Part shown: piece by piece, positions 4,923 to 24,000 of the stretch
Layout: every line of letters starts with the position of its first letter
How positions within the stretch are numbered: position 1 is the first letter of the stretch
Source of the DNA: an uncultured Psychrobacter sp.
GTDB lineage: Bacteria; Pseudomonadota; Gammaproteobacteria; Pseudomonadales; Moraxellaceae
Direction of reading: 5' to 3'
Length of the DNA: 24,000 nucleotides
NCBI GenBank assembly: GCA_963515535.1
Contig: CAUPWW010000005.1
Location: forward strand, 180,804-204,803
Notes under the pieces: generated by a model
Database searches by the model: none
The model's input: only the letters and a program-made list of their open reading frames with translations
What the model was told of the DNA's origin: nothing
Made by a program: the position numbers and the translations under genes

Positions 4923-4957
4923 AAGTCAGAACGGTGAGCAAAGAAACGGTGAAAACA

Positions 4958-5458
4958 ATGAATGATTTAGTGATTATTGAAGAAAACACAGCTTGCACAA
5001 ACAGCCTTGCTATTGCAGAAGGTTTGGGAGTTCAGCACGCCAGTGTCATGAAGATGATTAAAAAATACCAAGCTGATTTTGAAGAAGAAAACTTGGTCAG
5101 ATTTGAAATCCAAGCAAGACCATTAGGACAGCACGGCGGCGGTGTTAGTGAAGTTGCCGTATTAGACGAATATCAGGCAACATTGCTGCTCACATATATG
5201 AGAAACACCGCTAAGGTGCGCTTATTCAAACAGGCTTTGGTTAAAGCGTTTCTGCGAGCACGTGACCTACTGATGACTGGTCAAATGGGCTTGATGCAAA
5301 AACATGCAATCTTGACGCTGGCGCTTGGCGATGAAAAAGAAGTTGCAAGTAGCTGCGGTAAAGGCTTGGCGGACTGGAAGCGAAAACGAGACGGCCTACA
5401 AGCAGCTATAGCAGACGTTGAAAGACAAATGCAACCACAGCTAACCAATTTTGAATAA
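4958..5458 (+). CDS. Rha-family phage regulatory protein (paralogue 1)
   Basis: The N-terminal segment LVIIEENTACTNSLAIAEGLGVQHASVMKMIKKY… fits the Rha (Phage_pRha) pattern. ATG at 4958 is preferred over the track's GTG at 4934. Confidence 0.65.
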   Translation: MNDLVIIEENTACTNSLAIAEGLGVQHASVMKMIKKYQADFEEENLVRFEIQARPLGQHGGGVSEVAVLDEYQATLLLTYMRNTAKVRLFKQALVKAFLRARDLLMTGQMGLMQKHAILTLALGDEKEVASSCGKGLADWKRKRDGLQAAIADVERQMQPQLTNFE

Positions 5459-7372: not shown

Positions 7373-7582
7373 CTACTTGCCTTGCTCGAGTATCGCGATA
7401 TAGATTTTATCTAGCTTACGATGAATATCGCTATCAGTCACATGGTCGGTATTGTTTAATGATTCATCAAGGCGGTGGATAAGCTCAGCGTTTGCTGAAC
7501 GGTTGTTGTCCGCGGCTGACTGGTCTAGTCGCTCTTTTAGCTCAGCAGGTATCCTATAGGTTACAGGTACGTTTTTAGACAC
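7373..7582 (-). CDS. Arc/Mnt-family ribbon-helix-helix repressor
   Basis: VTYRIPAELKERLDQSAADNNRSANAELIHRLDESL aligns with the P22 Mnt/Arc core (FNFRMPMEVREKL…ANGRSMNSELLQIV). GTG start with AGGA 6 nt upstream. Confidence 0.75.
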   Translation of the reverse strand: MSKNVPVTYRIPAELKERLDQSAADNNRSANAELIHRLDESLNNTDHVTDSDIHRKLDKIYIAILEQGK

Positions 7583-7616
7583 GTTAAATCCTAGTTGGGT
7601 GGTTAATGATGGTTAA

Positions 7617-7645
7617 ATAATATCTTAATTGTTTGCACATTGCAA
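7617..7645 (-). promoter_or_regulatory. Candidate sigma70 promoter for the RHH gene (TTGCAA-17-TATTAT on the minus strand)
   Basis: -35 element at 7640-7645 and -10 element at 7617-7622, read on the minus strand. Confidence 0.45.
7633..7645. promoter_or_regulatory. 13-bp palindrome TTGCAcatTGCAA, candidate operator
   Basis: A perfect 5-bp inverted repeat with a 3-bp spacer covers the -35 elements of both divergent promoters. Confidence 0.4.
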
Positions 7646-7662
7646 TCATAACATGATATTAT
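7633..7662 (+). promoter_or_regulatory. Candidate promoter for Rha paralogue 2 (TTGCAC-18-TGaTATTAT)
   Basis: -35 element at 7633-7638 and -10 element at 7657-7662, with a TG extension at 7654-7655. Confidence 0.45.
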
Positions 7663-7690
7663 AACCATGTGCTTGAGAAAACTTAGGCAC

Positions 7691-7733
7691 AAAAAAGCCC
7701 CATACATTACTTTCGACGGATATGTATGAGGCT
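7691..7733 (-). terminator. Minus-strand intrinsic terminator inside the rha2 5' leader
   Basis: The minus strand reads gcctcatacat-(14 nt)-atgtatggggc-TTTTTT. The stem is 11 bp with one G-U pair. Confidence 0.5.
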
Positions 7734-7760
7734 GTTAACCCTAAACGAGAGGTATTAACA
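7691..7760 (-). ncRNA. Candidate ~70-nt cis-antisense RNA (sar-like) covering the rha2 RBS and start codon
   Basis: A minus-strand promoter TCGACA(7790-7795)-17-TATACT(7767-7772) predicts a start near 7760, and the terminator ends at 7691. The transcript would be complementary to GAGAGG…ATG of rha2. Confidence 0.35.
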
Positions 7761-8288
7761 ATGAGTAGTATAGCATTGAGTTTTAATAATGTCGATTTAG
7801 TATCAATTGATGGCGGCGAGCCAAGAACCACGTCATTAGCAGTGGCTAAGAAATTTGGTAAGCGTCACGGCGATATACTGCGAGCTATTAAGAATATGGA
7901 TTGCTCGCATGAATTCTCACTACGCAATTTTGCGTCGTCAGATTTTATAGACGAACGCGGCAAGGTGCGTCGAATGTTTAACATGACCAAAGACGGTTTT
8001 GTATTCTTGGTTATGGGCTTTACAGGTAAAGTGGCGGCTGAATTCAAAGAAGATTACATTAACGAATTTAACCGCATGGCTGACAAACTGAATGGCAATA
8101 TCGGTACATTGCTAGAGCGCCATAATGCAAAGTCAGGTATCTTGAAACAAGGTGAGGCAATCGCGTCCGATAGCGGCTATAACTTGTGGTTCTTTGGTCA
8201 AGTCAAAAACCCAAAGACGCGCACAGAATTAAAAGAAATTGAAAAAGAGTTGCAGCCTATGTTGCCTAATATTGAGGTGAAGAAATGA
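7761..8288 (+). CDS. Rha-family phage regulatory protein (paralogue 2, antirepressor-like position)
   Basis: ATG at 7761 follows GAGAGG. The Rha pattern is present (…EPRTTSLAVAKKFGKRHGDILRAIKNM…GFVFLVMGFTG…). It is divergent from the RHH gene. Confidence 0.65.
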   Translation: MSSIALSFNNVDLVSIDGGEPRTTSLAVAKKFGKRHGDILRAIKNMDCSHEFSLRNFASSDFIDERGKVRRMFNMTKDGFVFLVMGFTGKVAAEFKEDYINEFNRMADKLNGNIGTLLERHNAKSGILKQGEAIASDSGYNLWFFGQVKNPKTRTELKEIEKELQPMLPNIEVKK

Positions 8289-8536
8289 GCAATCAATGGA
8301 TAAGCGTTGATGACAGAATGCCCAAGGTAAAGGATTACTGCCTGACACTGGGTTCTAATGACGATGTAGAGTTTGCGGTCTATACTCAAGATAGAGATGG
8401 TTTCTACTTTGCCTCGATAGACGCGCCGATATGTGATAAATTCGGTTATGACAATAACGGAATCCTATACGGTGAGTTAACTAATATCAGATATTGGTTT
8501 CCATTGCCGCAACCGCCTAACCTAGACAACAACTAA
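8285..8536 (+). CDS. DUF551-like protein
   Basis: WISVDDRMPK… at the N-terminus and …RYWFPLPQPP at the C-terminus match the DUF551 pattern. ATGA overlap with rha2. Confidence 0.55.
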   Translation: MSNQWISVDDRMPKVKDYCLTLGSNDDVEFAVYTQDRDGFYFASIDAPICDKFGYDNNGILYGELTNIRYWFPLPQPPNLDNN

Positions 8537-8597
8537 ATAAACATTACGGCTCAAGTGAGTGTAATGTGAGTTGCAATCATGGGCTAGGGGATTGATT

Positions 8598-8807
8598 GTG
8601 AAAAGAGATATTAAAACGCTTGATGATGCGAATGAGATTTTAAACGTACATGGCATTGAGAAGTCGAGAGCTATCGTGCGTGATGCGCCTGATGGCGTAG
8701 AGTCATACTCATGGGTACTTGGCGAATCAGGTATTAGAGATAAGGAAGTTTGGATTTGTGATTTAAAGGACGCTATAAGTATCGTAGATAGAGAGGTGGT
8801 GAAATGA
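8598..8807 (+). CDS. Hypothetical protein
   Basis: GTG at 8598 lies 7 nt after AGGGGA, while the track's TTG at 8571 lacks an RBS. The 3' end is coupled to the next gene by an ATGA overlap. Confidence 0.4.
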   Translation: MKRDIKTLDDANEILNVHGIEKSRAIVRDAPDGVESYSWVLGESGIRDKEVWICDLKDAISIVDREVVK

Positions 8808-9037
8808 AACAGCTAACGCAAGCGGTTTTTGATGGCGCACCTGACTGGGTTAAGAGTGCAGCGGTTGATAGTACAGGTGATGTTTACTTTTACGCTGTAC
8901 CAAAAAAAGAACTCTCTTTTGATTCCGATGAATGTTGGTGGGTTTATTTGGGCGATAAGGATAATTCGCAAACTTATAGCCCTTATGAGGGTTACGACGC
9001 AACCGATTGGAAGGATAGCGCAATAGATAGAGTTTAA
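8804..9037 (+). CDS. Hypothetical Trp/Asp-rich small protein
   Basis: 77 aa, translationally coupled to the upstream gene. Confidence 0.45.
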   Translation: MKQLTQAVFDGAPDWVKSAAVDSTGDVYFYAVPKKELSFDSDECWWVYLGDKDNSQTYSPYEGYDATDWKDSAIDRV

Positions 9038-9122
9038 ACCCTCCACGCTGCCTAGGCTCATTACCGAATCGTGGGAACGCTACCCACTTGGCAGCACCTT
9101 ATTAGCGATTACTAAGCGAGTG

Positions 9123-9623
9123 ATGACAATGAAAAGTGTAATAATAAAAACACTAAAGGCGGTGTTTGTTCTTAGCGCAATTATGATAGTGATTGGCGTT
9201 ATTGCTGGTCTTTTTGAGAGTAGTGATGATAAAGCCGCAAGAGAGCTTAAAAACGAGCAAGACAAGATAGCAGCCACGCCGCAAAAGGCGGAAAAAGCAG
9301 TTGAAGATAACGCGCCTGAGCCTGCAAATGCTACGCCAATAGATACCCTAGTGGCGGACAATCAGCCTGATCCAACCATAGGCGGCAAAACTCGCATGGA
9401 TGTTTTAGTAGATTGTCAGACGGCAATACAAAAACAGTTGAGCAATCCACGCTCGTTTGATGTAAAAACTCGTGAGATTATCCATAAGAAGTACGAAGAC
9501 GGTGGCGAGCACTTAGTTGGCTTTAAGTTTTACGCAAAAAATCAATTCAATGCTGAATCGGAACACATGGCAGTATGCGCCTTTGACCATAACGGCAAGC
9601 GACTGACCGCAGAATACAAATAA
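9123..9623 (+). CDS. Membrane-anchored protein (N-terminal TM helix plus a ~75-aa C-terminal domain)
   Basis: Hydrophobic segment AVFVLSAIMIVIGVIAGLF. The C-terminal part CQTAIQKQLSNPRSFDV…FYAKNQFNAE…AVCAF resembles small prophage cargo (lipo)proteins. The start could be 9120, 9123 or 9129. Confidence 0.5.
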   Translation: MTMKSVIIKTLKAVFVLSAIMIVIGVIAGLFESSDDKAARELKNEQDKIAATPQKAEKAVEDNAPEPANATPIDTLVADNQPDPTIGGKTRMDVLVDCQTAIQKQLSNPRSFDVKTREIIHKKYEDGGEHLVGFKFYAKNQFNAESEHMAVCAFDHNGKRLTAEYK

Positions 9624-9692: not shown

Positions 9693-12600
9693 ATGGCTGA
9701 AGCACAAGAAAGCCGTCTTAGTATCGTAATTGATAGTGCGGACGCTGAAAAACGCATTAAAGAGCTACGCAAGCAATTACGCGAGCTTGGGCAGCAGTCA
9801 GATGAAACGGGCGACAATACCGATGATTTAGGACGCAGACAGCGCCGAGCAAGTGATGATGCTGGTAATTTAGGCAGCGCCAATGATAACGCTAGAAAGT
9901 CACTAGATAACATGGCAAAGGCGGCCGCTATTGCAGGGGCGGCATTGGCAGGTGCAATCGGGCTATCCATCAACAAGGCTCAGTCTTGGGAGTCGGCACT
10001 TGCAGAGATTAATAAAACGGTTGATTTTGCAGCTGAGGACGGCTTAGCTAATATGCGTAAAGGTCTGCAAGAGCTGACCACGCAGATACCGCAAACGTTT
10101 GAGGAGTTGGCAGCCGTAACTGCTACTGGCGGACAGCTTGGTATTGCCGAAGAAAACTTGCTTGGCTTTACTGAGACTATGGCAAAGATGGGTGTGGCTT
10201 TTGATATACCAGCACAGCAAGCCGCTGACAGTATGGCAAAGATTGCTAACGTATTCCAAATCCCTATTGAAAATATTGATCGTTTAGGCGATGCAATCAA
10301 TACGCTATCAAATAACACACCTGCTACTGCCGCCCAGCTCATTGATTCACTGCAACGTGTCGGTGGTGTCGCTAAGGTCTTTGGTTTGACAGAGGACGCG
10401 ACATTAGGCTTAACAGGTGCATTGATTGCTATGGGTAAGCCTGCCGAAGTCGCATCAACGGCGGTCAACTCGCTATTAACTACGTTCTCAACACTGGATA
10501 ACGCCACCAAGTCACAAATTAAAGGGTTTGAGAAACTAGGCTTAGATATTGACGAGTTTAGTAAGTTGGTCGCAACCGATGGTAAACAAGCGATTATTAC
10601 TTACTTAGAGGCTATTAATAAACTAGACCAGTCAGAGCGCATCGGTACAAACGCTATGATTATCGGTAAAGAGTTTGGTGACGACTTAACCATGCTTGCT
10701 GGTAGTGTCGGCGTATTAGAAAACAACTGGGCAATGCTTGGTGAAACGGTCAACACAACCAAAGATTATTTTGGCTCAATGGATGTTGAGTTTAAAAAAA
10801 TTAGCGAAACGTCTGCAAATAAAATGAAGTTATTTAAGCAGAATATAGATGGCGTGGTTGCTGGTATCGGTGACGCCTTTATCCCTGCATTAAATGACTT
10901 GCTTTACACCCTAACGCCTTTTATCGCTACGATGAGTATATGGGTATCTGAGAATCCTGAGCTAATTAAGCAGATTGTGACCATTGGTGGCGCTTTTCTT
11001 GGTTCTGTTGTTGGGTTAAAGCTTTTTGCTGATGGTGTTAATGCTGCAAAAAGCACTGTCGATGGCTTAAAGCTTGCTTATACGGCGTTGGGTAGCACGA
11101 TGGGCTTAACGGTTATCGGTCTAGGTATTTTGCTGGCTGCTGGCGTACTGGTTTATCAAAACTGGGATGAGATAAAACGCGTTGTTAGTGAAAATCAGCC
11201 GATGTTTATTGCTTTGGGCGTGTCAGTAAGTGCGCTCACAGTGGCCTTAGTTGCAGCCAATGCGCCATTGATACTATTAAAAGTACAGGCGGCAGCGGCG
11301 GCGGTGCAAGCAGGTGTGATGACTGTGGCAACCGCAAGTTGGTCAGTGGCAGCAGGTGTGGCAGCAGCAGCAACCTGGACGTTTAATGCGGCGCTAGCTG
11401 TCTTAACCAGTCCAATACTTGCGGTGGTTGCGGCCATCGCCTTAATCGCGGCGGGTGGTTATCTAGTCGTTAAAAACTGGGCTGCTATCAGCGCTGGGCT
11501 TAACGCTGAGTTTAATAAGATAAAAAGCTATGTATTAAACACGGTTGCAACTATGCAGGCGGCTTGGGATAGAGGAGTGGCTAATACCCGTGGCGCAATT
11601 ATCAATATCAAAAACACTATCGTCACCACGTTAAAAGAGCTGCCTAGCCGTATGCTGCAAATCGGCAAAGACATTGTTACGGGCTTGGTCAACGGTATTA
11701 AGTCAGGCGCAAGTGGTGTGACTACCGCAATCAGTAGCATGGCATCAAGCGCAGTTGCTAAAGCCAAAAGTGTTCTCGATATTCGTAGCCCATCACGGGT
11801 AATGAAGAAAGTCGGCGAGCAAACAGCCGAAGGTATGGCAGTCGGCATCAAGAAAGGCGCAAAGGCTGTTAAAACCGAAGCACAAAAGATGGCTGAGCAA
11901 GCAGTGGCGGCCGTCAAAACAGGCGTGGAAAACTTAAAGCGTGAGATTGCATTATTTGGCAATGATAGCCCAGTCGCTGCGCTTAAATATGATATTAGTG
12001 TCGGTAAGTTTGGCGGCGCTGATACCAGTCAGCTAATGTCATTAACGCAGACCAAAGAGCAACTAGAGTTATCTAAAAAGCTCGCAGATGCCAATAAATC
12101 AGTGCAAGACAGTATCGACGGTCTTATCAAGCAACAAGCCTTGTTTGGCAATAATAGCTCGCTTGCTTCGCTCATGTACGATATTGAGCATACCGAGAAA
12201 TACAAAGGCGTGACGCAAGAGCTAACCGATAAGCTAATCGAGCAAACACGAGCGCTTGAGCAATTAGGCATGACCGCGAAAGCGACCGATGCTATTAGGG
12301 CGCGATTTGCACAACTTGAAAAAGCTAAGGAAACATCGAGCGAAGGCTTAGATAAAATGCTCGGAGGTATCGAGCAAGAAACGCCAATTGGTAAAATACA
12401 GGCCGATTATGAGCAGCGATTAGAGGTGGTTCGTCAGTTTGAGCAACTACATACCGACGAAGTGCAAAAAGCGGCAGAAGCAAGAATGGCAGTTGAGCAA
12501 AGCTACCAAGACGCTAAACGCAATCTCATGCTAACGCAAGGCGAGGCGCTGTTTGGTGATTTAGCAGGGTTGGCAAAAGGCTTTGCTGGTGAGCAGTCAG

Positions 12601-13088
12601 GCATCTACAAAGCATTGTTTGCCGTTGAAAAGGGCTTTGCCATTGCACAATCCGCTATAGCTATTCAGCAATCAGTAGCAAAAGCCATGGCCGTTGGTTT
12701 TCCTGCCAACATACCTTTAATCGGGCAAGCCATAAGCCAAGGCGCTGACATTATGGGCAACATCAAAGCGGTATCAGCAGGCTTTAAAAAGGGCGGTTAC
12801 ACAGGTAATGCAGGCGTCAATGATATTGCAGGGGTTGTCCATGGCCGTGAGTACGTGTTTGATGCTCAGTCTACTAAGCGTATTGGGGTTGATAATCTTA
12901 ATGCGATGCGCCGAGGTGATAAGGTTGGCGGTGATGTGAATATCACGGTCACAGTAGATGCGCAGGGCAATAGCTCAGTATCGGGCGATAACGAACGAAT
13001 GGGACGTGACATGGCAAACGGTATCAAAGCTGTGGTTATGGACACGTTACGCAAAGAGAAACGTCAAGGAGGTATGCTTTATGCTTAG
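9693..13088 (+). CDS. Tail tape measure protein
   Basis: 1131 aa. It has a TP901-type core (…AEINKTVDFAAEDGL…MAKMGVAFDIPAQQAADSMAKIANVF…), central hydrophobic segments, and a lambda H-like C-terminus (GGYTGNAG…GVVHGREYVFDA). By the ~0.15 nm per residue rule, this length implies a tail of about 170 nm. Confidence 0.9.
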   Translation: MAEAQESRLSIVIDSADAEKRIKELRKQLRELGQQSDETGDNTDDLGRRQRRASDDAGNLGSANDNARKSLDNMAKAAAIAGAALAGAIGLSINKAQSWESALAEINKTVDFAAEDGLANMRKGLQELTTQIPQTFEELAAVTATGGQLGIAEENLLGFTETMAKMGVAFDIPAQQAADSMAKIANVFQIPIENIDRLGDAINTLSNNTPATAAQLIDSLQRVGGVAKVFGLTEDATLGLTGALIAMGKPAEVASTAVNSLLTTFSTLDNATKSQIKGFEKLGLDIDEFSKLVATDGKQAIITYLEAINKLDQSERIGTNAMIIGKEFGDDLTMLAGSVGVLENNWAMLGETVNTTKDYFGSMDVEFKKISETSANKMKLFKQNIDGVVAGIGDAFIPALNDLLYTLTPFIATMSIWVSENPELIKQIVTIGGAFLGSVVGLKLFADGVNAAKSTVDGLKLAYTALGSTMGLTVIGLGILLAAGVLVYQNWDEIKRVVSENQPMFIALGVSVSALTVALVAANAPLILLKVQAAAAAVQAGVMTVATASWSVAAGVAAAATWTFNAALAVLTSPILAVVAAIALIAAGGYLVVKNWAAISAGLNAEFNKIKSYVLNTVATMQAAWDRGVANTRGAIINIKNTIVTTLKELPSRMLQIGKDIVTGLVNGIKSGASGVTTAISSMASSAVAKAKSVLDIRSPSRVMKKVGEQTAEGMAVGIKKGAKAVKTEAQKMAEQAVAAVKTGVENLKREIALFGNDSPVAALKYDISVGKFGGADTSQLMSLTQTKEQLELSKKLADANKSVQDSIDGLIKQQALFGNNSSLASLMYDIEHTEKYKGVTQELTDKLIEQTRALEQLGMTAKATDAIRARFAQLEKAKETSSEGLDKMLGGIEQETPIGKIQADYEQRLEVVRQFEQLHTDEVQKAAEARMAVEQSYQDAKRNLMLTQGEALFGDLAGLAKGFAGEQSGIYKALFAVEKGFAIAQSAIAIQQSVAKAMAVGFPANIPLIGQAISQGADIMGNIKAVSAGFKKGGYTGNAGVNDIAGVVHGREYVFDAQSTKRIGVDNLNAMRRGDKVGGDVNITVTVDAQGNSSVSGDNERMGRDMANGIKAVVMDTLRKEKRQGGMLYA

Positions 13089-13540: not shown

Positions 13541-15007
13541 ATGCAAATACAAAAAATAAACCTTGGTGCTGAGCCCAAAGGCATCGGCGGCGACAGCGCA
13601 CGGACCAGTAATGGCAAGGTTAACGACAATTTTGATGCGGTAGCAGCTGAATTTACAGACGTCAAAGCCTTGATACCTAAAGTGACCTCTGAGCTTGGAC
13701 AATCGACAACGACAGCGATATCACAAAAGCTGTTTACTGATACCGTCATTCCGACATTTGAAGACATTGGCGTTGCAGGATCGATATCATTTGGTATTGG
13801 CATTACAACCAACCTACCGCCTGGCATGTCAGAGATGGAAGGCACGCGCATCAAGGGGCATAGTAATTACGGCAACTATCAATATAGCGATGGCTCGGTG
13901 ATGTGCTATGTCCCCATGTTCTATTATCGCTGGGGACATGCAAGCAATCCTAGTTACGCGACTCACGGTCTTAACTCATGCGACGTTAAGTCAAAACAGG
14001 CATTCGCAAGCATTGCAGCGGCACAAAGTGCAGGTTACGCAATTCATCGCGCTTTTTATGACGATGGCCAATTAAAAAACGGCTTCTTTGTTGACAAATA
14101 TCAAGCGAGTAACAACGCAGGCAAAGCAAGCTCTATCAAAAACGGCATTCCACTGTCGTCATCTAGTGCCAACGCGCCATTCAGTGGATTGACTGGCTCC
14201 CCTGCTAACAACCTAGCTGGATCAATCGATGCTGTCAAAACCCGTGGCGCAAACTTCTTCCCGACGACCATCTTTATCCAGCGCGCGCTATCGTTGCTTA
14301 GCATGGCTCATGCCCAAGCAGCAACGAGCACGGCGGCGTGCGCTTGGTACGATGCGTCTGGTGTAACCAATTACCCTAAAGGGTGCAATAACAACGCACT
14401 GCGCGACGTAAACGACACGAGCGTTATCTATGAAGAGACCGGCTACTTAACAGCGGGCAAAACAGGGTCAGCAAAACCATTTGCCAAGACCACGCACAAC
14501 GGCCAGCACAGCGGCGTTGCAGACTTAAACGGCAATATGTACGAAGTGGCTTTAGGGTTGACGCAGACAGACGGTAATTTTTACATCTTAAAAACCAGTG
14601 CTAAAGCGTCAGCACTCACAAGCGGGGTAACGCTTGCGACCGACGCGTGGGGCACTGCTGCAATGACCAAAAGCTATGACTCGCTAGGTGCAAGCTATGG
14701 TGAACTCACAGGCGAGAGTCGCAGTTTTGCCATCGGCTCGACAACCAAGCAAGTATTCTCAAGCGCCAACAGTGGTCTGGCTTGGTCGGCATCCTGCGCA
14801 GGCATACCCCAACTTGGCGGCTCAGATGGCACCAACATATTTGGCAACGACCGCTTCTACGACAATCGAGTTGAGCACTTGTGCCCGGTTGTGGGCGGCA
14901 ACTGGAACAACGGCACGTATGCTGGTGTCTGGGCGGTCCATTGCTACTTTTTTCGGTCGAACAGCAACTACAACTTCGGTGTCCGGGCGGCCTTGTACCC
15001 TGTTTGA
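13541..15007 (+). CDS. DGR target: tail-fibre/receptor-binding protein with a C-terminal C-type-lectin/FGE-like fold (Mtd analogue)
   Basis: The N-terminus has a fibre-type motif (GGDSARTSNGKVNDNFDAV). HNGQHSGVADLNGNMYEV is FGE/CLec-like. The last ~40 codons form the VR (…CPVVGGNWNNGTYAGVWAVHCYFFRSNSNYNFGVRAA…). Confidence 0.85.
   Translation: MQIQKINLGAEPKGIGGDSARTSNGKVNDNFDAVAAEFTDVKALIPKVTSELGQSTTTAISQKLFTDTVIPTFEDIGVAGSISFGIGITTNLPPGMSEMEGTRIKGHSNYGNYQYSDGSVMCYVPMFYYRWGHASNPSYATHGLNSCDVKSKQAFASIAAAQSAGYAIHRAFYDDGQLKNGFFVDKYQASNNAGKASSIKNGIPLSSSSANAPFSGLTGSPANNLAGSIDAVKTRGANFFPTTIFIQRALSLLSMAHAQAATSTAACAWYDASGVTNYPKGCNNNALRDVNDTSVIYEETGYLTAGKTGSAKPFAKTTHNGQHSGVADLNGNMYEVALGLTQTDGNFYILKTSAKASALTSGVTLATDAWGTAAMTKSYDSLGASYGELTGESRSFAIGSTTKQVFSSANSGLAWSASCAGIPQLGGSDGTNIFGNDRFYDNRVEHLCPVVGGNWNNGTYAGVWAVHCYFFRSNSNYNFGVRAALYPV
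14880..14990 (+). repeat. DGR variable region (VR)
   Basis: 111 nt collinear with the TR at an offset of +566. There are 12 mismatches, 11 of them opposite TR adenines. Both repeats share the GC-rich 3' end cggtgtccgggcgg, after which the flanking sequences diverge. Confidence 0.9.
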
Positions 15008-15032
15008 CTGAGCGATAGCGAAGGAGTTTGAG

Positions 15033-15416
15033 TTGGCAGTAGACAGCGAGTCAAATTTAGATAAGAAGTTCATTCAAACGATGAAGCTTCTAAATATCTA
15101 TCTTAATCATTTCCCAAGCCATGAGAAGCATGGCTTGGCGCTTAAAATAAGACAAACCGCTTACGAGATGTATGACTACATCGTCGAAGCGCAAAAGCGT
15201 TATCACAAGAAGACGACGCTTACCAATTTAGACATCAAGCATGAGCAGCTCAGAATGCAAGTTAGGCTTGCGTTCGAGCTGTCCTATTTCGGTCATCCAA
15301 AGACCGAAAAGATGTCTGTGCAAAAATTAAATGCCAAACTTTATCTTGTGATATCAGCAAGTATCGATGAGATCGGCAAGATAATCGGCGGTTGGATTAA
15401 ATCACTAAAACAATAA
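15033..15416 (+). CDS. avd: DGR accessory variability determinant (Avd, four-helix-bundle family)
   Basis: TTG start 6 nt after AAGGAG. 127 aa and basic. FPSHEKHGLALKIR and the C-terminal EIGKIIGGWIKS resemble the Avd family as I recall it (unverified). Its position between VR and TR fits. Confidence 0.7.
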   Translation: MAVDSESNLDKKFIQTMKLLNIYLNHFPSHEKHGLALKIRQTAYEMYDYIVEAQKRYHKKTTLTNLDIKHEQLRMQVRLAFELSYFGHPKTEKMSVQKLNAKLYLVISASIDEIGKIIGGWIKSLKQ

Positions 15417-15445
15417 GGTGCTCCAAAAAGGGAGGCGTCTTAATA

Positions 15446-15556
15446 TGTGCCCGATTGTGGGCGGCAACTGGAACAACAGCACGAATGCTGGTGTCTGGAC
15501 GGTCAATTGCAACAATTCTCGGACGAACAGCAACAACAACATCGGTGTCCGGGCGG
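15446..15556 (+). repeat. DGR template repeat (TR)
   Basis: This is the non-coding copy of the VR. In the VR frame it carries 11 AAY codons. It contains 29 adenines, 11 of which are substituted in the VR. Confidence 0.9.
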
Positions 15557-15692
15557 ACTCGGCATCACCTAAATCGGCAAGCTGCCGACTGGTGCCAAGG
15601 GAGACGTTTTCCTGCTTTAAGCGAAATCGGTTTAAACCCGTCTTTCTAGTAGCGCACGCGAAAGTCAGACGGGTTCTTTTTTAAGGATTGTT
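15557..15692 (+). ncRNA. DGR spacer (Sp) portion of the TR-containing RNA
   Basis: A 136-nt untranslated gap lies between the TR and the RT ATG. It contains hairpin tcggca-agc-tgccga (15573-15587) and a long stem aacccgtctttc / gaaag(tc)agacgggtt (15635-15675) followed by T6. Confidence 0.55.
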
Positions 15693-16760
15693 ATGAAAAG
15701 GGTTGGTAATTTATACGAATCCGTAGTCTCAGCCGAATCATTATGGGACGGCTATTTGGGCGCAAAGAAAAGCAAAGGTGGTCGACGTGGGTGTTTTCAG
15801 TTTGAAAAAAGCCTAGGCCGCGAGCTAAACGAATTACAAGAAGAGTTGGCAAACAACTCCTATAAGCCAAGACCCTATTTTAGATTTGTAGTACATGAGC
15901 CAAAAAAGAGGGAGATATATGCCCCAGCATTTAGAGATTGTGTTGTGCAATATGCAATCTATTTAAGAGTTATGCCAATATTTGATAAAACCTTTATAGA
16001 CCAGTCATTTGCTTGCCGTGTTGGGCTTGGCACACACAAGGCTGCCGACTATACGCAAGACGCGCTCAGAAGAGCCGGCCCCAATACCTACACGCTACAA
16101 TTAGACATAAAGAAGTTCTTTTACAGCATAGACAGACCGACTCTTAGAAAATTGCTAGAGAAGAAGATTAAGGATCAGCGCTTGGTCGATTTGATGATGT
16201 TGTTTGCGGACTATCCCGAACCCAAAGGCATCCCAATCGGGAATCTGTTGTCGCAAATGTTTGCGTTGATATACATGAATCCTGTAGACCACTACGCCAC
16301 TAGAGTGCTGAAGCCAGCAGCTGGGTATTGTCGTTACGTTGACGACTTCTTATTGTTTGGCTTGACCCGCGCGCAAGCACTGAAGTACAGAGAATTGCTG
16401 ACAGATTTTGTAGAAAATGAGCTCAAATTGACCCTATCACGATCAACGATAGCCAATACCAAACGCGGCGTTAACTTTTGTGGCTATAGAACCTGGCGCA
16501 GCGGCAGGTTTATTAGGAAGCACAGCTTATACAAGACTAGAAAAGCTGTAAGGGCCAATAAACTGGAATCTGTTATATCGCATCTTGCGCATGCCTCAAA
16601 AACCCATTCACTGCAACATCTACTAAATTATACGGAGCAACAAAACCATGGCTTATATTGTGAGCTACCAAAAATTTATCACCAAAGACACTACCAAGCA
16701 GTTGGACGCTCCGGAGGGATCAGTGGAGTTATGTACAATCGATGGGGTGACGTATGTTAG
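15693..16760 (+). CDS. DGR reverse transcriptase
   Basis: IPIGNLLSQMFALIYMN is the DGR-type (I/L)GxxxSQ motif, and YCRYVDDFLLFG is the YxDD box. RBS AAGGA at 15683-15687. Confidence 0.9.
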   Translation: MKRVGNLYESVVSAESLWDGYLGAKKSKGGRRGCFQFEKSLGRELNELQEELANNSYKPRPYFRFVVHEPKKREIYAPAFRDCVVQYAIYLRVMPIFDKTFIDQSFACRVGLGTHKAADYTQDALRRAGPNTYTLQLDIKKFFYSIDRPTLRKLLEKKIKDQRLVDLMMLFADYPEPKGIPIGNLLSQMFALIYMNPVDHYATRVLKPAAGYCRYVDDFLLFGLTRAQALKYRELLTDFVENELKLTLSRSTIANTKRGVNFCGYRTWRSGRFIRKHSLYKTRKAVRANKLESVISHLAHASKTHSLQHLLNYTEQQNHGLYCELPKIYHQRHYQAVGRSGGISGVMYNRWGDVC

Positions 16761-17046
16761 CGTGCCTGATGATGCGGACTTGCCCATCAATCAGCCGGAT
16801 GAAATTGTAGACACTGTGCAGCCAGTGGTAATGAATGACGATCTGCGAGAGCTGATTAAATCACAGTCAACGCATGTGCAGCTCATCGATGATCGCGTCA
16901 AAGCAAAGATTGCCGAACGCTACAGCATCACCGATGAGATTAAGCAATTACGCAGCGCACCTTCCGTCGAGTTCGACGAGTACGCAGAATATGCAGAATC
17001 ATGTCGCGCCTGGGGCCAAGAACAGAAATCAATGCTGGGGCTATAA
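16648..17046 (+). CDS. Hypothetical acidic protein (possible fibre assembly/chaperone-like)
   Basis: 132 aa of protein-like composition. GGAG lies 10 nt upstream. It overlaps the RT 3' end by 113 nt, and its stop is 1 nt before the L-like ATG. Confidence 0.5.
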   Translation: MAYIVSYQKFITKDTTKQLDAPEGSVELCTIDGVTYVSVPDDADLPINQPDEIVDTVQPVVMNDDLRELIKSQSTHVQLIDDRVKAKIAERYSITDEIKQLRSAPSVEFDEYAEYAESCRAWGQEQKSMLGL

Positions 17047-17047
17047 C

Positions 17048-17881
17048 ATGCTTTCATCTGACCTACAAAAGTTATCGGTTACAGGGCTTGTCACACTATA
17101 TGAATTAGATGCTACCAAGCAAGGCGGCGGCATATTGCGATGGCACGGCCATGTGAGTTTTGAAGACTGGCGCAAGTTATTTGAGTGGGCCGGCAGCACG
17201 GAAACACTAGCGGGAGACACCACAGTCTTGGCTGGTACAGATTATACGCAAAGTCCTACAGAGACTGATTTTTTTAGAAACATCGTTTGGCAAGGCCAAA
17301 AATACACTCCGGTCGCCATCCAAACTGATGGGTTGGAGATTCGCGGTGATGGCAGACCATCTGCGCCAACGCTTATTATTGGAAATAACATCGATGGTAT
17401 TAATGGCGCAGTCACGGCGTTGTGCGCCTTTTACGGCGACTTTGTTGGCGCAGAGCTCCGCGTTATCCATGTATTAGCAAAATATCTTGACGCAGCAAAC
17501 TTCGGCGCAGGTAATCCAACAGCTGATAGTCAGCAATATACTGACCAGTACTGGACCATCAATCAAAAGACCCACGAATCGCTAAGCGAGCAAGACAGCT
17601 CAGTGGCGTTTGAGTTATCAACGCCGCTCACCGCCCAGCGCAAGATGATACCTAGTCGCACGATTACTAAGTATTGCGACTGGGCGGTCAAAGGCAAATA
17701 TCGCGGCGAATCATGCGGCTACACAGGTACCGCTATGTTTACTGAGGATGGCACACCAACCGATAATCCCGCGCTCGATAAATGCGGTGGCTGTTTAAGT
17801 GATTGTAAGCTGCGTTTTGGCGAGCATGAGCCACTCTCGTTTGGTGGATTCCCAGCTGCATCGATGATAGGCCGACGATAA
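17048..17881 (+). CDS. L: Minor tail protein, lambda gpL-like
   Basis: VWQGQKYTPVAIQTDGLEIRGDG…APTLIIGN, YRGESCGYTG and DKCGGCLSDCKLRFG parallel lambda L, including its 4-Cys (Fe-S) cluster. The ATG at 17048 is used rather than the track's 16874. Confidence 0.9.
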   Translation: MLSSDLQKLSVTGLVTLYELDATKQGGGILRWHGHVSFEDWRKLFEWAGSTETLAGDTTVLAGTDYTQSPTETDFFRNIVWQGQKYTPVAIQTDGLEIRGDGRPSAPTLIIGNNIDGINGAVTALCAFYGDFVGAELRVIHVLAKYLDAANFGAGNPTADSQQYTDQYWTINQKTHESLSEQDSSVAFELSTPLTAQRKMIPSRTITKYCDWAVKGKYRGESCGYTGTAMFTEDGTPTDNPALDKCGGCLSDCKLRFGEHEPLSFGGFPAASMIGRR

Positions 17882-19202: not shown

Positions 19203-22200
19203 TGTCATTATTAGCAATTAAAGGCGCCAAAGCCGGCCAGGAAAAACCGCACCAGCCGTCTATTGCCAAAGACGATGTCGCCTCTATCAGTAAGGTTAAG
19301 ATTTTGTATGCGTTATCGGAAGGTGAAGTCAAAGGCTTGGTCGATGGCGCGGCCAGTATTATGCTGGACGGCACCCCACTATTGGATGCTGACGGCAATC
19401 CAAACTTTGAAAACGTCGAATGGGAAATCCGCCACGGTACGGTTGACCAAACGCACATTGCAGGGCTGCCAAGTCTCAGTAGTGAGATTGGTATTGGTAC
19501 GATACTTCGCAGCGGTACGCCATGGATTCGCACCATCACCAATACCCAATTATCTAGCGCCAACGTCAATGTATCTTGGTCACGCCTCAGCGACACGACT
19601 GATAAAAATGACATCATTGGTACCAAGGTTGATTATGCGATTGATGTCCAAACCGACGGCAATGGCTATGTAACAGTACTCGATACCAGCATCAAAGCCA
19701 AAACCTCGGGGCGCTATCAGCGCACGCACAATATCAAACTGCCAGAAGCACAGCAAGGTTGGCAAATTCGTGTGCGTAAAATCACTGCTGATGGCGACAA
19801 TGAGCGCAAGTTTAATCAGATGCAGATTGATAGCATCGCTGAGATTATCGATGCCAAACTACGTTATCCGCATACGGCCTTGCTGTATCTATCGTTTGAT
19901 GCGCGTGCGTTTAGCAATATCCCTAAAATGACGGTTGATATGTACGGCCGTTATCTTAAAGTACCTGTCAATTATGACCCTGTTAGCCGTACCAGCGCGG
20001 GCATTTGGACTGGTGAACTTAAAACAGACTATACCAACAACCCTGCGTGGGTGTATTACGACCTCATCACCAATGATCGCTATGGCCTTGGCGACCGCTT
20101 AAAGCCATTTATGATTAATAAATGGGCCATTGCTCATATCGCGCGTATCTGTGATGAGCCAGTCAGCGATGGTAAAGGCGGCACTGAGCCGCGCTTCACT
20201 TGTAATTTGTATTTGCAGGTCGATGAGCAAGCATACCAAGTGCTGCAACATATCGCCGCTATCTTTCGCGGCATGAGTTTTTGGAATGGCGCACAGATCA
20301 TTTTAGATGCAGATACCCCGCGCGATGTCGACTATGTCATCACCCGCGCAAACGTGGTTGACGGCGCCTTTATTAAAAGCGGCACCGCCATTGATGATCG
20401 TCATACGGTCGCGCAAGTAGCATGGTCAAACCCAGAAAACAACTATGAGACAGACTATGTAATGGTGCGCAATGAGCGTGCGATTGCAAAATACGGCATT
20501 AACCCACTTGAGATGCCAGTTGTCGGCTGTACCAGCGAGGGGCAAGCATACCGCGCAGGACTGGCGGCATTACTCTCTGAACAAAACCGCACGCAAACCG
20601 TCACATTTACGATGGGGCTGGATGGCTCACTACCGACCGTCGGTGACCGTGTTGATATTGCAGATATGATGTTCACTGGCGTTAATAACGGCGGGCGCAT
20701 ATCAGCAGTTAATGCAAACCGTACCGTCATTACTATTGATCGTGATGACGTCCCTGCAACCACTGGCGACAGATTAAGCGTTAACTTAGAGTCTGGCCGC
20801 GCTCAAACGCGTGAAATCTTAAGCGTATCTGGACGCAATATCACAGTAAAAACACCATTTGACCCAGTTGCCGCAGAAAATGTCTGGGCAGTTGATAGCG
20901 ATGAGCTACCAACCATGTCATTTATCGTGCTATCAATCACAGAAAACGAGGATAGAACGCAATACACGTACACCGCACTGCAATATGACGCGGGGCTCTA
21001 TGCGCAAATCGATAATGGCACCATTATTGAGCCGCGCCCACCAGCACCGCCGTTTAATCCGTATATCATCCAAGCACCGGATAGTGTCACGGTGTCATCA
21101 CGTAACCGCGTAGTACAAGCACAAAACGTCACCACATTCGTTATCGTGTGGAGCCAAGTTAAAGATGCGGTCGCATACGACGTTGAATGGCGTAAAGATG
21201 ATGGCGACTGGATTAAGCTGCCACGCACGGGCAATATTTCAGCTGAAATAGACGGCGTTTACAGTGGTAATTATCTGGCGCGTGTTCGCGCTGTATCAGC
21301 ATTTGATGCCATCTCAAAACCGACAACATCAATGCTCACTGCCATTACTGGTAAAGCAGGCAAACCACCAAAACTTCTATCAATTAAAGCAACTGGCTTG
21401 CTCTTTGGTATGCGCATTGATTGGATGTTTGCACCAGGCAGTGACGACACGGCTTATACAGAGATACAAGTCGCCTCTGCACCTGATGTTAATGTCGCAA
21501 CCCTGGGTCAGTTTGCATACAGTACCGATACTCACACGATTAACGGACTGCAAGGCGGATTGACACAGCACTATCGTGGTCGCATCGTCGATAAGCTTGG
21601 CAACACCAGCGACTGGACGACTTGGGTTAGCGCGACAACAGACCAAAGTGCTGACAAAGTGCTGGACTTAATCCAAGGTCAGATAACCGGTAGTAGCCTC
21701 GATCAAGCCCTAACTAGCCAGATTGATAAAATTGCAGTCAATGAAACTGCAATTATTGCCGCCAACAAAGCCATCGCTGCAGAAACGCAAGCTCGCATTG
21801 ATGCAATACTAGCAGCTAATGACGCTATCACTGCTGAGCGCGACGCGCGTATCGCCGATGTTTTAGATGCAAATAACAAAATTACCGCAGAGCAGCAAGC
21901 GCGGACCGCAGGTTTATTGGCTGCTAATGAGGGCATCTCAACAGAAGTAACACAGCGTAAAGACGCAGATACCGCTATCAATAGCCGCGTTGATACTCTC
22001 GTTAGCAAGACTGATGGCAATACAGCAGCTATTAGCAGTGAAGTAACCGCTCGCACCAATGCAGACACCGCACTATCAAGCCGCATCGATACTGTGGTGG
22101 CTCAAAGCGACGGTAATACGGCCGCTATTAGTAGTGAAGTGACCGCCAGAACCAATGCTGATAGCGCACTCTCTACTCGTATCGATACGGTTACCGCTGA

Positions 22201-24000
22201 ATCAGCAGGCAATAAAACCGCCATACAGACTGAGACAACAGCCAGAACATCGGCAGACGAAGCACTGGGCAAGCGCATCGATACGGTGACGGCATCAAGC
22301 GGTGAAAACAAATCAGCGATACAGACCGAAGTTACTGCTCGCACCAATGCAGACACCGCACTATCAAGCCGCATCGATACTGTGGTGGCTCAAAGCGACG
22401 GTAATACGGCCGCTATTAGTAGTGAAGTGACCGCCAGAACCAATGCTGATAGCGCTTTATCTACTCGCATTGATACGGTGTCATCTAAAACGGATGACAA
22501 CACGGCATCCATCACCAGTAATTATGAAACGCTAACCACCGCGACAACTGCCAATGCAACCAAGATTGATGGTGTTTTTGCCCAAGTCAATCCGCTAATG
22601 GCTGGGGATGATACGGTTAGTGCTGGGGACGACACAGTTTTAGTTGGCGTATGGTCTGAAACAAGCGCACGTATCGAAGATGATATTGCATTAGGTCAGC
22701 GCATTGATATATTAAATGCAAGTTTTAATGACAATACTGCACTGATATCAACCGAGCAAAAAGTAAGAGCTGATGCCGATAGCGCCTTGTCTACTCGTGT
22801 TGATATGCTGTCAGCTGCAACGGAAGGCAATACTGCGTCAATCACCAGTGAAAAAACAGCCAGAACAACGGCTGATGAGGCGCTGGGCACTCGCATTGAC
22901 ACCGTCACAGCAACGGTATCTGACAACACGGCTTTAATACAAAGCGAGTCAACTGCGCGCGCCAACGCAGATACAGCACTGTCGCAACGTGTCGATACCG
23001 TGCAGTCATCAACTGCCACAGCACAGTCTAAAGCTGACAAAGCCGAAGCTGATGCAGCGACCGCCCAAACTGCCGCCAACGCAGCAGCGACAGCAGCGGG
23101 AAATAAAGGCGAGGTTATCTTTGGCTCAACTACGCCAGCAGCTATTAAACAATTAGCGCAAAACTTATGGATTGATACAACAGGAGGTAAAAACACGCCT
23201 AAGCGCTGGGATGGCAGCGCATGGTCAATCGTAACCGATAAAGCAGCAACAGACGCTCAAGCAGCCGCTAATGCCGCACAAGGTACAGCAACCGAGGCGC
23301 TAGGCAAAGCAAATACTGCGACAAGCAATATCGCAACGATACAAACCGAGCTGACAGCCACAACATCGAAAACCAATGCCACAGCAACATCGGTTGGTAC
23401 ATTGCAAACAACAGTGGCAGGTAATACAGCAAGCATACAGACAGCGCAATCAACCATCAACGGTATGCAAGCGCAATATACCGTCAAACTTGATGCAGGT
23501 GGCAGGGTATCAGGCTTTGGCTTGATGAACGATGGTGCTACAAGTGCGTTTGATGTGCGTGCTGATAGATTTAGTATATCTGCACCAGTCGGCAAGCCTA
23601 ACGATGTTAATGGTACTAGCCCATTTATGGTGCTGACTAATCCGCAAGTGATTGACGGCGTAACTGTACCGGCTGGGGTTTATGCTCGTAACTTTTATGC
23701 GCCTCGTGCGTCTATTGATACGATACAAATCAAAGATGGTGCTATTAAAACGGCGCAGATTGATAACCTTGCGGTGACAACAGCAAAGATTGATAATCTA
23801 GCTGTTAAGTCGGCACAGATTGACAATCTAGCAGTGACAAGCGGTAAGATTGCAAACCTTGCGGTTGATACGTTGCAGATTGCAGGTAATGCTATTACAG
23901 TAACTGGTGTGTTTTTTGCAGAACCTGAAACTCACTTTAATATAGCTCAAACTGATTACATTGTCGCAGAATTAGATATAGATTCCGCAGGAGGCACAGT
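19202..24000 (+). CDS. J: Tail tip / host specificity protein, lambda gpJ-like (3'-truncated by the window, at least 1599 aa)
   Basis: The ATG overlaps the I-like stop (TAATG). I read the frame codon by codon to nt 23998 and found no stop. It is absent from the track because it is open-ended. The J core is present, with FN3 region (AYDVEWRKDDGDW…YLARVRAVSA; GKAGKPPKL…), then a repeat fibre, then YTVKLDAGGRVSGFGL…ADRFSI. Confidence 0.9.
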   Translation, partial: MSLLAIKGAKAGQEKPHQPSIAKDDVASISKVKILYALSEGEVKGLVDGAASIMLDGTPLLDADGNPNFENVEWEIRHGTVDQTHIAGLPSLSSEIGIGTILRSGTPWIRTITNTQLSSANVNVSWSRLSDTTDKNDIIGTKVDYAIDVQTDGNGYVTVLDTSIKAKTSGRYQRTHNIKLPEAQQGWQIRVRKITADGDNERKFNQMQIDSIAEIIDAKLRYPHTALLYLSFDARAFSNIPKMTVDMYGRYLKVPVNYDPVSRTSAGIWTGELKTDYTNNPAWVYYDLITNDRYGLGDRLKPFMINKWAIAHIARICDEPVSDGKGGTEPRFTCNLYLQVDEQAYQVLQHIAAIFRGMSFWNGAQIILDADTPRDVDYVITRANVVDGAFIKSGTAIDDRHTVAQVAWSNPENNYETDYVMVRNERAIAKYGINPLEMPVVGCTSEGQAYRAGLAALLSEQNRTQTVTFTMGLDGSLPTVGDRVDIADMMFTGVNNGGRISAVNANRTVITIDRDDVPATTGDRLSVNLESGRAQTREILSVSGRNITVKTPFDPVAAENVWAVDSDELPTMSFIVLSITENEDRTQYTYTALQYDAGLYAQIDNGTIIEPRPPAPPFNPYIIQAPDSVTVSSRNRVVQAQNVTTFVIVWSQVKDAVAYDVEWRKDDGDWIKLPRTGNISAEIDGVYSGNYLARVRAVSAFDAISKPTTSMLTAITGKAGKPPKLLSIKATGLLFGMRIDWMFAPGSDDTAYTEIQVASAPDVNVATLGQFAYSTDTHTINGLQGGLTQHYRGRIVDKLGNTSDWTTWVSATTDQSADKVLDLIQGQITGSSLDQALTSQIDKIAVNETAIIAANKAIAAETQARIDAILAANDAITAERDARIADVLDANNKITAEQQARTAGLLAANEGISTEVTQRKDADTAINSRVDTLVSKTDGNTAAISSEVTARTNADTALSSRIDTVVAQSDGNTAAISSEVTARTNADSALSTRIDTVTAESAGNKTAIQTETTARTSADEALGKRIDTVTASSGENKSAIQTEVTARTNADTALSSRIDTVVAQSDGNTAAISSEVTARTNADSALSTRIDTVSSKTDDNTASITSNYETLTTATTANATKIDGVFAQVNPLMAGDDTVSAGDDTVLVGVWSETSARIEDDIALGQRIDILNASFNDNTALISTEQKVRADADSALSTRVDMLSAATEGNTASITSEKTARTTADEALGTRIDTVTATVSDNTALIQSESTARANADTALSQRVDTVQSSTATAQSKADKAEADAATAQTAANAAATAAGNKGEVIFGSTTPAAIKQLAQNLWIDTTGGKNTPKRWDGSAWSIVTDKAATDAQAAANAAQGTATEALGKANTATSNIATIQTELTATTSKTNATATSVGTLQTTVAGNTASIQTAQSTINGMQAQYTVKLDAGGRVSGFGLMNDGATSAFDVRADRFSISAPVGKPNDVNGTSPFMVLTNPQVIDGVTVPAGVYARNFYAPRASIDTIQIKDGAIKTAQIDNLAVTTAKIDNLAVKSAQIDNLAVTSGKIANLAVDTLQIAGNAITVTGVFFAEPETHFNIAQTDYIVAELDIDSAGGT
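21986..22987 (+). repeat. In-frame 96-bp (32-aa) tandem repeat array within the J-like gene
   Basis: The unit is R[IV]DT[VL]x6Nx3Ix2Ex3Rx2ADxALxx. Six contiguous units occupy 21986-22561 and three more occupy 22700-22987. Segments 22049-22167 and 22337-22455 are 119/119 identical. Confidence 0.85.

Follow-up and report, generated by a model that had tools for sequence, protein, structure and literature searches.

Introduction

Diversity-generating retroelements (DGRs) in phage tail genes, DGR targets with a lectin fold and DGR RNA elements conserved across taxa are all already established. Among the closest described systems to the element reported here is the DGR of the Bordetella phage BPP-1, a podovirus whose cassette stands at the end of the tail-fibre genes in the order mtd, avd, template repeat (TR), spacer (Sp) and brt, the last being the gene of the reverse transcriptase (RT) bRT. 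Immediately 3′ of the variable repeat (VR) of the BPP-1 DGR there is a DNA hairpin or cruciform. The ribonucleoprotein of the phage has been described by cryo-EM (bioRxiv 10.1101/2023.10.23.563531). Other points of reference are the DGR of the Pseudomonas phage Bise, the solved DGR variable protein TaqVP of Thermus aquaticus (PDB 5vf4) and the Psychrobacter phage Psymv2, whose tail operon is the closest described. Here, we analyse a stretch of 24,000 nt (the window) from an uncultured Psychrobacter sp. (assembly GCA_963515535.1, contig CAUPWW010000005.1, positions 180,804 to 204,803 of the forward strand). The window very probably carries a complete DGR within the tail-gene operon of a lambda-like siphovirus prophage, working by a BPP-1-like mechanism and rewriting a tail-associated protein.

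An earlier reading of the same DNA, made without database searches (the sequence-only reading), had proposed a complete element of BPP-1 style, composed of target/VR, avd, TR, spacer and RT. Every one of these components was found in the present study, with gene order and orientation as in BPP-1 and all of them on a single strand (+).

Results

The window contains a single family of direct repeats reported by the repeat finder, 14880-14993 and 15446-15559, at 89% identity. The first copy, the VR, covers codons 447-484 of the 488 of the target gene and has its 3′ end 14 nt before the stop codon; the second, the TR, is non-coding. Compared exactly and without gaps, 14880-14990 and 15446-15556 show 12 mismatches over 111 nt, in agreement with all coordinates of the hand alignment in the sequence-only reading. 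Eleven of these mismatches lie at TR adenines (15454, 15478, 15484, 15499, 15505, 15511, 15514, 15515, 15523, 15535 and 15541; Fisher one-sided p = 7.3 × 10⁻⁷), and among the 82 non-adenine positions, compared to 29 adenines in the TR, just one differs (C15518 in TR, T14952 in VR). Published error rates of bRT at U, C and G, applied to the TR composition, predict ~0.77 non-adenine errors per homing event, and a lone mismatch of this kind is thus expected. The register of the repeats extends by 3 nt, to 14993/15559, with one extra mismatch that is also at a TR adenine (15557). The 99 matches in 111 are expected by chance at ~6 × 10⁻³⁷, as corrected for all position pairs in the window, and no third repeat copy or second VR is present on either strand of it.

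All of the 29-30 TR adenines fall at VR-frame codon positions 1 or 2 (18, 11 and 0 at positions 1, 2 and 3), spread over 18 codons that are mostly AAY, and translation of the TR in the VR frame gives NWNNSTNAGVWTVNCNNSRTNSNNNIG. A stop codon is unreachable by any substitution at TR adenines. The theoretical repertoire comprises ~1.7 × 10¹⁸ proteins over 20 codons, or ~10¹⁷ for the 18 core codons. Both repeats terminate in the GC-rich block CGGTGTCCGGGCGG, which resembles the initiation of mutagenic homing (IMH) element and is found in identical form at 14977-14990 (VR) and 15543-15556 (TR). The flanks diverge beyond it, here and likewise in all related loci. The AAY-rich frame and the terminal block ahead of diverging flanks had both been noted before, and both can be read directly from the DNA.

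Natural relatives vary at exactly the codons where a DGR is expected to act. The window target is identical to WP_313974127.1 (uncultured Psychrobacter), whose 90%-identity cluster has 37 members. We compared 19 database sequences of 488 aa, 14 of them from this cluster and five from the next two clusters by similarity (91% identity to the protein of the window). The TR-adenine codons were polymorphic without exception (18/18; mean of 6.0 alleles), as compared to 78 of the 470 other columns (1.2 alleles; p = 5 × 10⁻¹⁴), which bears out in database sequences the variation that the sequence-only reading had expected at TR-adenine positions. One pair of homologues shows no residue difference outside the VR and three inside; another shows one outside and 13 inside. 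Comparison was extended to the DNA of nine related loci, which derive from genomes and viral contigs, have RTs 72-98% identical and each possess a TR/VR pair of their own. Mismatches at TR adenines amount to 14/15, 16/16, 14/14, 17/17, 12/13, 14/14 (in each of two loci, L011 and L012), 12/13 and 11/13, with 0 or 1 mismatch at VR adenines per locus. Close loci have TRs that are 97-100% identical and VRs at 82-89%; between the window and locus L007, the TR is 100% identical and the VR 85%. TR and VR evolve in concert: at the non-adenine cells where TRs differ between loci, the VR carries the base of its own TR in 145 of 147 cases, and TR-to-VR copying therefore continued while the lineages diverged. 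As judged from which of the two copies stays constant, the flow of information would be one-way, from TR to VR.

These comparisons also bear on whether the window preserves a fossil, that is, a DGR active in the ancestry of the prophage whose present copy has ceased to diversify, the VR/TR differences being left from the last homing. We consider this very unlikely. Current activity is beyond what a single genome can show, the non-adenine difference C15518/T14952 could be drift after homing, and the element resides in a prophage, carried by a bacterial contig of 237 kb, prophages being prone to decay. However, no gene of the cassette is disrupted, all run in the direction of the tail operon, which is likewise intact and open including gpJ, and the RNA helices described below are all preserved. 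Relatives that are near-identical differ almost only in the VR, so homing must have been recent on the timescale of the lineage, and the one non-adenine mismatch is what RT error alone predicts.

The protein components are those of a DGR. The RT (15693-16760, + strand, 355 aa) finds its best PDB sequence match in 8ub7 (328-aa RT; residues 2-288, E = 1.8 × 10⁻⁴⁴), whereas group II intron and retron RTs match at E = 1.5 × 10⁻¹⁶ or weaker. In tblastn against deposited phage genomes, brt of BPP-1/BIP-1/BMP-1 is matched at 35% identity over 91% of the query, other DGR phages are matched too, and the closest RT is that of phage Bise at 56% identity. Further matches are to Pfam RVT_1 and PHROG 1423 (E = 7 × 10⁻⁹³). 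The motifs IGNLLSQ and YVDD, already pointed out in this open reading frame (ORF) by the sequence-only reading, are located at aa 182-188 and 215-218. DGR RTs are distinguished by the signature [I/V/L]GxxxSQ in place of the QGxxxSP of group II and retroviral RTs (PMC7826257). R73 of the window RT aligns with R74 of bRT, which together with I181 constitutes the two residues demonstrated in published work to promote adenine mutagenesis. The scores on NCBIfam RT models are all far below the cutoffs, the top named model being group II intron RT with 119.6 bits against a cutoff of 300; the enzyme is therefore not a group II, retron or Drt RT. On the basis of sequence comparison, the window RT groups with DGR RTs, closest to the bRT of Bordetella phage. 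The accessory variability determinant, Avd (15033-15416, + strand, 127 aa, with a TTG start preceded by AAGGAG), is encoded between VR and TR as proposed before, and it matches Pfam bAvd (E = 1.6 × 10⁻¹⁷; 64.4 bits, cutoff 40) as well as PHROG 3206, ‘Avd protein of DGR’ (E = 8 × 10⁻²²).

With repeats, natural variation and proteins at hand, an origin of the repeat pair free of retroelement activity can be weighed. It would involve a partial duplication kept similar by recombination and subject to diversifying selection, next to an unrelated retron or group II enzyme. Receptor-binding domains are indeed often under diversifying selection, and the top named NCBIfam model is, as just mentioned, that of a group II intron RT. 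Selection cannot, however, explain why the variable nucleotides should coincide with the adenines of a repeat that is non-coding. All 10 of the 10 independent elements have their differences on TR adenines, with the non-coding copy as the invariant one; the DGR RT is the best in PDB by 28 orders of magnitude, the NCBIfam matches being far short of their cutoffs; and Avd is found together with the signature motif of DGR RTs. The sequence-only reading had named beforehand mismatches lacking enrichment at TR adenines, or an RT of group II or retron type, as findings that would speak against a DGR; the mismatches are enriched there and the RT is of neither type. We give practically no credence to an origin by duplication and selection, which is effectively refuted.

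The DGR RNA is supported by covariation. The alignment ran from the avd stop to the RT start and comprised 8, then 19 non-redundant elements, the additional ones being obtained from a motif scan of viral contigs and including GC-rich elements with ~50% RT identity. Five helices are backed by RNAalifold and by explicit counting of pairs. The proposed structure has 98.2% of its cells paired, compared to 38-49% with slid partners; 15 pairs are changed on both sides, as opposed to 1-3 in the slid controls; and the observed covariation score was reached by none of 500 shuffles. Two long-range helices hold in 19 of 19 sequences, the divergent GC-rich elements among them (96.4% paired versus 39-58%). 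A search of the whole window with Rfam at gathering thresholds returned nothing.

From 5′ to 3′ on the + strand, the structure begins with a closing helix of 13 pairs, whose 5′ strand (15429-15441) is in the avd-TR intergenic region and pairs with 15601-15613; it is paired to 100% in 8 sequences and to 98.8% in 19, and 3-4 of its pairs show compensatory changes. The outer helix (15558-15567 with 15590-15599; 93-97% paired), a proposed template:primer duplex, encloses a small hairpin (15574-15579/15583-15588) with three compensatory pairs. The segment 15601-15634, for which there is evidence from both covariation and invariance, consists of the 3′ strand of the closing helix, a short hairpin GCU-UUA-AGC (15614-15622) whose third pair shows four pair types, and a single-stranded stretch. 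The latter starts with an invariant G-A-A (15623-15625) and comprises the invariant GAAAUCGG from 15623 onward, of which AAATC is invariant in 19 sequences, with single-stranded AAAUCGG conserved from 15624. A long interrupted stem-loop (15635-15675), seen in the single-sequence fold and with compensatory changes in six of seven basal pairs, stands ahead of the ribosome-binding site of the RT.

To relate these elements to BPP-1, we mapped the cryo-EM description onto the BPP-1 sequence, with TR G117 at 2904, Sp A56 at 2831, Sp59-70 as CGGUUCUGUCCU and Sp71-78 as GCUUCGGC, followed by G79, A80 and A81. The elements of the window occur in the same order and topology as in the BPP-1 DGR RNA. The closing helix would correspond to the avd:Sp ‘cPRT Stop’ duplex, its 3′ strand being the equivalent of Sp59-70; the hairpin 15614-15622 with its G-A-A would correspond to Sp71-78 with G79-A80-A81 (the A-minor adenosines); and AAAUCGG would take the position of the Thumb Ring. 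The stem-loop 15635-15675 is the putative positional equivalent of the bRT-binding stem-loop, the small hairpin 15574-15588 that of the Avd-binding stem-loop (Sp3-33), and the outer helix the likely counterpart of the template:primer duplex TR117-129:Sp47-56. Exact strings common to both systems at matching places are CAUCACC, UCCUGCUU and GCGAA. From this mapping, which may extend to the protein contacts and the priming site, we predict A15598 as the priming adenosine and C15558 as the first templated base. A15598 pairs with U15559 and is followed by G-G ahead of the closing helix, parallel to A56-G57-C58 in BPP-1, and the predicted cDNA start at C15558 is within one nucleotide of the end of VR/TR similarity (15559).

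The stem-loop 15635-15675 was also considered as a plain terminator. Covariation and the comparison with BPP-1 favour the equivalent of the RT-binding stem-loop, and a simple terminator scan did not report the hairpin, its loop being too large. The T-run that follows (15676-15692) is terminator-like in appearance; it is found in the AT-rich Psychrobacter group and absent from GC-rich relatives, and is thus lineage-specific. In this lineage alone, it could serve to terminate the DGR RNA or to dampen expression of the RT.

Between the closing helix and the TR, the motif CUUAAnAUG (window 15442-15447) is invariant or nearly so across the 19 elements, very divergent ones included, and it sits where cDNA synthesis terminates in BPP-1. 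A coding TR was examined in the form of an ATG-initiated ORF (15418/15445-15684) that spans TR and spacer, and was rejected: the ORF is not conserved, with its first stop at 8 to 88 codons across 19 loci and its ATG out of frame in L010 and L011 through a 4-nt insertion. This insertion, TGTG, is placed between the invariant AUG and the TR start (L010:5727-5760, L011:5729-5760) and leaves the TR/VR relationship apparently unaffected.

The target gene (13541-15007, + strand) encodes a protein of 488 aa with an N-terminal portion of ~70 aa modelled at low confidence, a core that is conserved and, at the C-terminus, a lectin-like domain bearing the VR. It matches phrog_2889 (aa 306-487), the tail protein phrog_5302 (E = 6 × 10⁻⁸) and, at the N-terminus, in short and weak form, the tail-fibre phrog_12499 (aa 3-35, E = 5.5 × 10⁻⁴); a Pfam match was not obtained. 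The sole match among PDB sequences is 5vf4, weak and at aa 304-370 and 436-484, the VR-encoded C-terminus included. The AlphaFold model built from 48 homologues (predicted local distance difference test, pLDDT, 76; predicted template modelling score, pTM, 0.79) provides the structure prediction that the sequence-only reading had called for, and it is most similar to solved variable proteins of DGRs. Foldseek on PDB places TaqVP (5vf4) on top (E = 2.5 × 10⁻⁹, probability 1.0), followed by the Mtd variants 1yu2/1yu4, the formylglycine-generating-enzyme (FGE)-like PvdO and CalU17, and TvpA. Based on the model, the target is assigned to the C-type-lectin/FGE fold class used by DGR targets. Homologues of the target (393-778 aa, 87-90% query coverage) have their N-terminal segments swapped, in keeping with a protein that is attached to the virion by an anchor exchanged among tail types.

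The label of receptor-binding fibre, which derives from position, the weak N-terminal tail-fibre match and the fold, is to be read as a prediction. A working DGR could instead diversify a non-structural protein, or a lectin-like protein of different function, encoded in the tail operon. The target lacks a Pfam match, the tail-fibre PHROG match is short and weak, the closest structure, that of TaqVP, does not belong to a phage fibre, and the gene occupying the same slot in Psymv2 (orf41) was considered as a homologue of the target and rejected, as there is no significant similarity. Still, we regard this alternative as unlikely. The gene lies between gpM and gpL within the tail-tip module; homologues are found after gpJ (L049) or in a structural block after a portal gene (L046); their swapped N-terminal segments are as expected of adaptors to different virions; and the receptor-binding Mtd is among the structural matches, next to the ‘tail protein’ match of PHROG 5302. 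We note a short N-terminal pattern, M-x-I-Q ... G-D-S ... K-V-x-x-N-F, similar between the target (13541-13640) and Psymv2 orf41 (L001:16075-16170); not statistically significant alone, it may represent a tail-attachment motif.

The surrounding genes place the cassette in the late operon of a siphovirus prophage, with genes of head protease, major capsid protein, connectors, tail terminator, tail tube and chaperones, then tape measure (9693-13088) and gpM (to 13416). The DGR follows, and after it gpL (17048-17881), gpK, gpI and a gpJ-like tail-tip gene (19205-24000, + strand) that is open for at least 1598 codons and continues past the window end. The C-terminal part of gpJ has ~80% DNA identity to gpJ of Psymv2; a disrupted gpJ was considered and rejected, as a single frame stays open from 19205 up to the window end. 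The gpM-gpL slot also houses the cassette of close relatives (L002, L003 and L007-L009), and in an Advenella prophage the cassette is located after gpJ, ahead of the lysis genes. Two Rha/anti-repressor-like genes (4934-5458 and 7722-8288, + strand) are situated within the tail-gene operon, and a segment (7374-9126) is 88% identical to Psychrobacter phage vB_PmaS_Y8A in a match that overlaps KilA-N and Arc-like genes. Genes and segment look like moron-type insertions.

Directly after the RT, and overlapping its 3′ end by 113 nt in another frame, comes orfX (16648-17046, + strand, 132 aa), whose stop is 1 nt before the gpL start codon. It holds the same place in 15 related loci, including divergent ones and ones where no gpL/gpK homologue was detected in the fetched locus. 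None of its 174 database homologues has a Pfam domain, and orfX itself gave no Pfam or PHROG match, even at E ≤ 10. The N-terminal 25 residues are conserved, and a 107-aa database entry (P0143, apparently from the same contig) is therefore probably truncated. The model (pLDDT 95) combines a sheet of three strands at the N-terminus with a helical bundle at the C-terminus; it has no fold match in PDB and a single match elsewhere, to an unnamed viral model. A relationship to bbp4 of BPP-1 was rejected for lack of similarity, as was the identity of the C-terminal extension in 218-aa forms of orfX with gpL, the two being unrelated.

A podovirus-like metagenome contig with a P22-type portal nearby (L046:4352-6438) encodes a target homologue, 59% identical in the core, and directly after it a homologue of orfX, and the 12 kb fetched encode neither RT nor Avd; orfX therefore goes with the target gene and not with the RT. 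The C-terminus of this target homologue aligns to the VR region but is degenerate and non-AAY, and the gene pair may represent a state before or after residence of a DGR. In the DGR-bearing versions, avd-TR-RT stand between target gene and orfX. We tentatively propose, as a possibility on which we would not rely, that the avd-TR-RT core is a module inserted between the gene of a lectin-type tail protein and its dedicated partner orfX (conserved, 130-220 aa); that the target-orfX pair, with or without the core, is docked to differing virion types (lambda-like tail tip, after gpJ, podovirus-like block); and that orfX is a previously unrecognised assembly or attachment factor for hypervariable receptor-binding proteins. 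A role of orfX as a new DGR accessory factor appears less likely.

Discussion

The element is understood as a DGR whose likely mode of action, deduced by homology, is that of BPP-1. The transcript of avd-TR intergenic region, TR and 136-nt spacer would fold such that the sequence just 5′ of the TR pairs with the spacer and the TR 3′ edge with a second spacer segment. A complex of RT and Avd would bind this RNA and prime cDNA synthesis in cis from a spacer adenosine, the predicted A15598, starting at C15558. The TR would be copied faithfully except opposite adenines, where any nucleotide may go in, and synthesis would halt at the upstream helix. Anchored by the common GC-rich block, the cDNA would then replace the VR at the target 3′ end, with the TR left unchanged. 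Each such round could rewrite up to 18 residues (~10¹⁷ possible proteins) on the C-type-lectin-like domain of the tail-associated protein, and the outcome would most likely be an altered choice of host surface receptor by the phage.

Several points weigh against this interpretation. VR/TR homology continues for only ~3 nt past the identical GC-rich 14-mer, and the details of target recognition may therefore not be those of BPP-1; the flank on the VR side is conserved among loci, but it also encodes the target C-terminus and the ribosome-binding site of avd. A hairpin of BPP-1 type was not detected downstream of the VR, where the repeat finder gave no inverted repeat and the DNA fold of 14975-15075 (−6.3 kcal/mol) has a z-score of +0.98 relative to shuffles. 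The term ‘BPP-1-style’ of the sequence-only reading stands for gene order and RNA architecture, and is qualified by the hairpin not detected after the VR and the short homology beyond the GC block. The spacer alignment to BPP-1 by MAFFT was unreliable and was left unused, with the element mapping resting on topology, spacing and short exact strings. On the NCBIfam equivalog DivGenRetAVD, Avd scores 75.4 bits, slightly under the cutoff of 80. The N-terminal 70 residues of the target are modelled at low confidence, and its receptor-binding role, although backed by position, fold and N-terminal exchange, is a predicted one. Lastly, one sequence cannot reveal ongoing homing, and present activity of this copy is a presumption.

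Compared to known systems, we place the element as a well-preserved further DGR of a well-described class, for which the natural evidence of activity is unusually good; the current understanding of DGRs is unchanged by it. What it adds is a fully annotated DGR in the cold-adapted genus Psychrobacter, where the literature searched yielded no paper that describes one, and small additions on how DGR targets attach to virions, from a cassette within a lambda-like tail-tip module and its orfX partner. Psymv2 is 78% identical in the tape measure protein, 71% in gpK, 68% in gpI and 53% in gpL, and shares 90% DNA identity with the window at the gpM 3′ end. Its gpM-gpL slot holds the fibre-annotated orf41 (287 aa), and there is no RT, Avd, TR or orfX in this phage. 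Phage Bise shares the order target-avd-TR-RT, with 55% identity in Avd and 31% in the target C-terminus besides that in the RT; it has a contractile tail with the cassette after baseplate and fibre genes, and no homologue of orfX was detected there. TaqVP, best structural match and only PDB sequence match of the target, has just 13-14% identity to it, with a TM score of 0.40-0.53 over a multi-domain alignment, and is a bacterial chromosomal protein, whereas the window target is encoded in a phage tail module.

As to BPP-1, its RT, the best solved relative of that in the window, and the latter have in common the signature [I/V/L]GxxxSQ and the R74 equivalent; both systems have Avd, a GC-rich block at the VR/TR 3′ end and a spacer of similar length (~136-144 nt). 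The differences concern the setting and the details. The window cassette stands between gpM and gpL of a lambda-like siphovirus tail as opposed to the end of podovirus tail-fibre genes, its target has no sequence similarity to Mtd, and orfX after the RT is an extra conserved gene. The upstream strand of the closing helix is intergenic between avd and TR in the window, yet inside avd in BPP-1; the hairpin after the TR has 6 bp, as compared to 11 bp with a UNCG loop; VR/TR homology past the cDNA start, at its predicted place, amounts to ~1 nt in contrast to 17 nt; and the GC-rich 14-mer is followed by 3 nt of homology, where the IMH/IMH* of BPP-1 comprises a GC-rich element with ~21 bp of further VR/TR homology. 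That the RNA architecture of BPP-1 is found despite an RT identity of only 35% makes the window element an independent system for the model of cis-priming, of value for the specific nucleotides that it predicts (A15598 and C15558) and for the natural compensatory variants of its helices.

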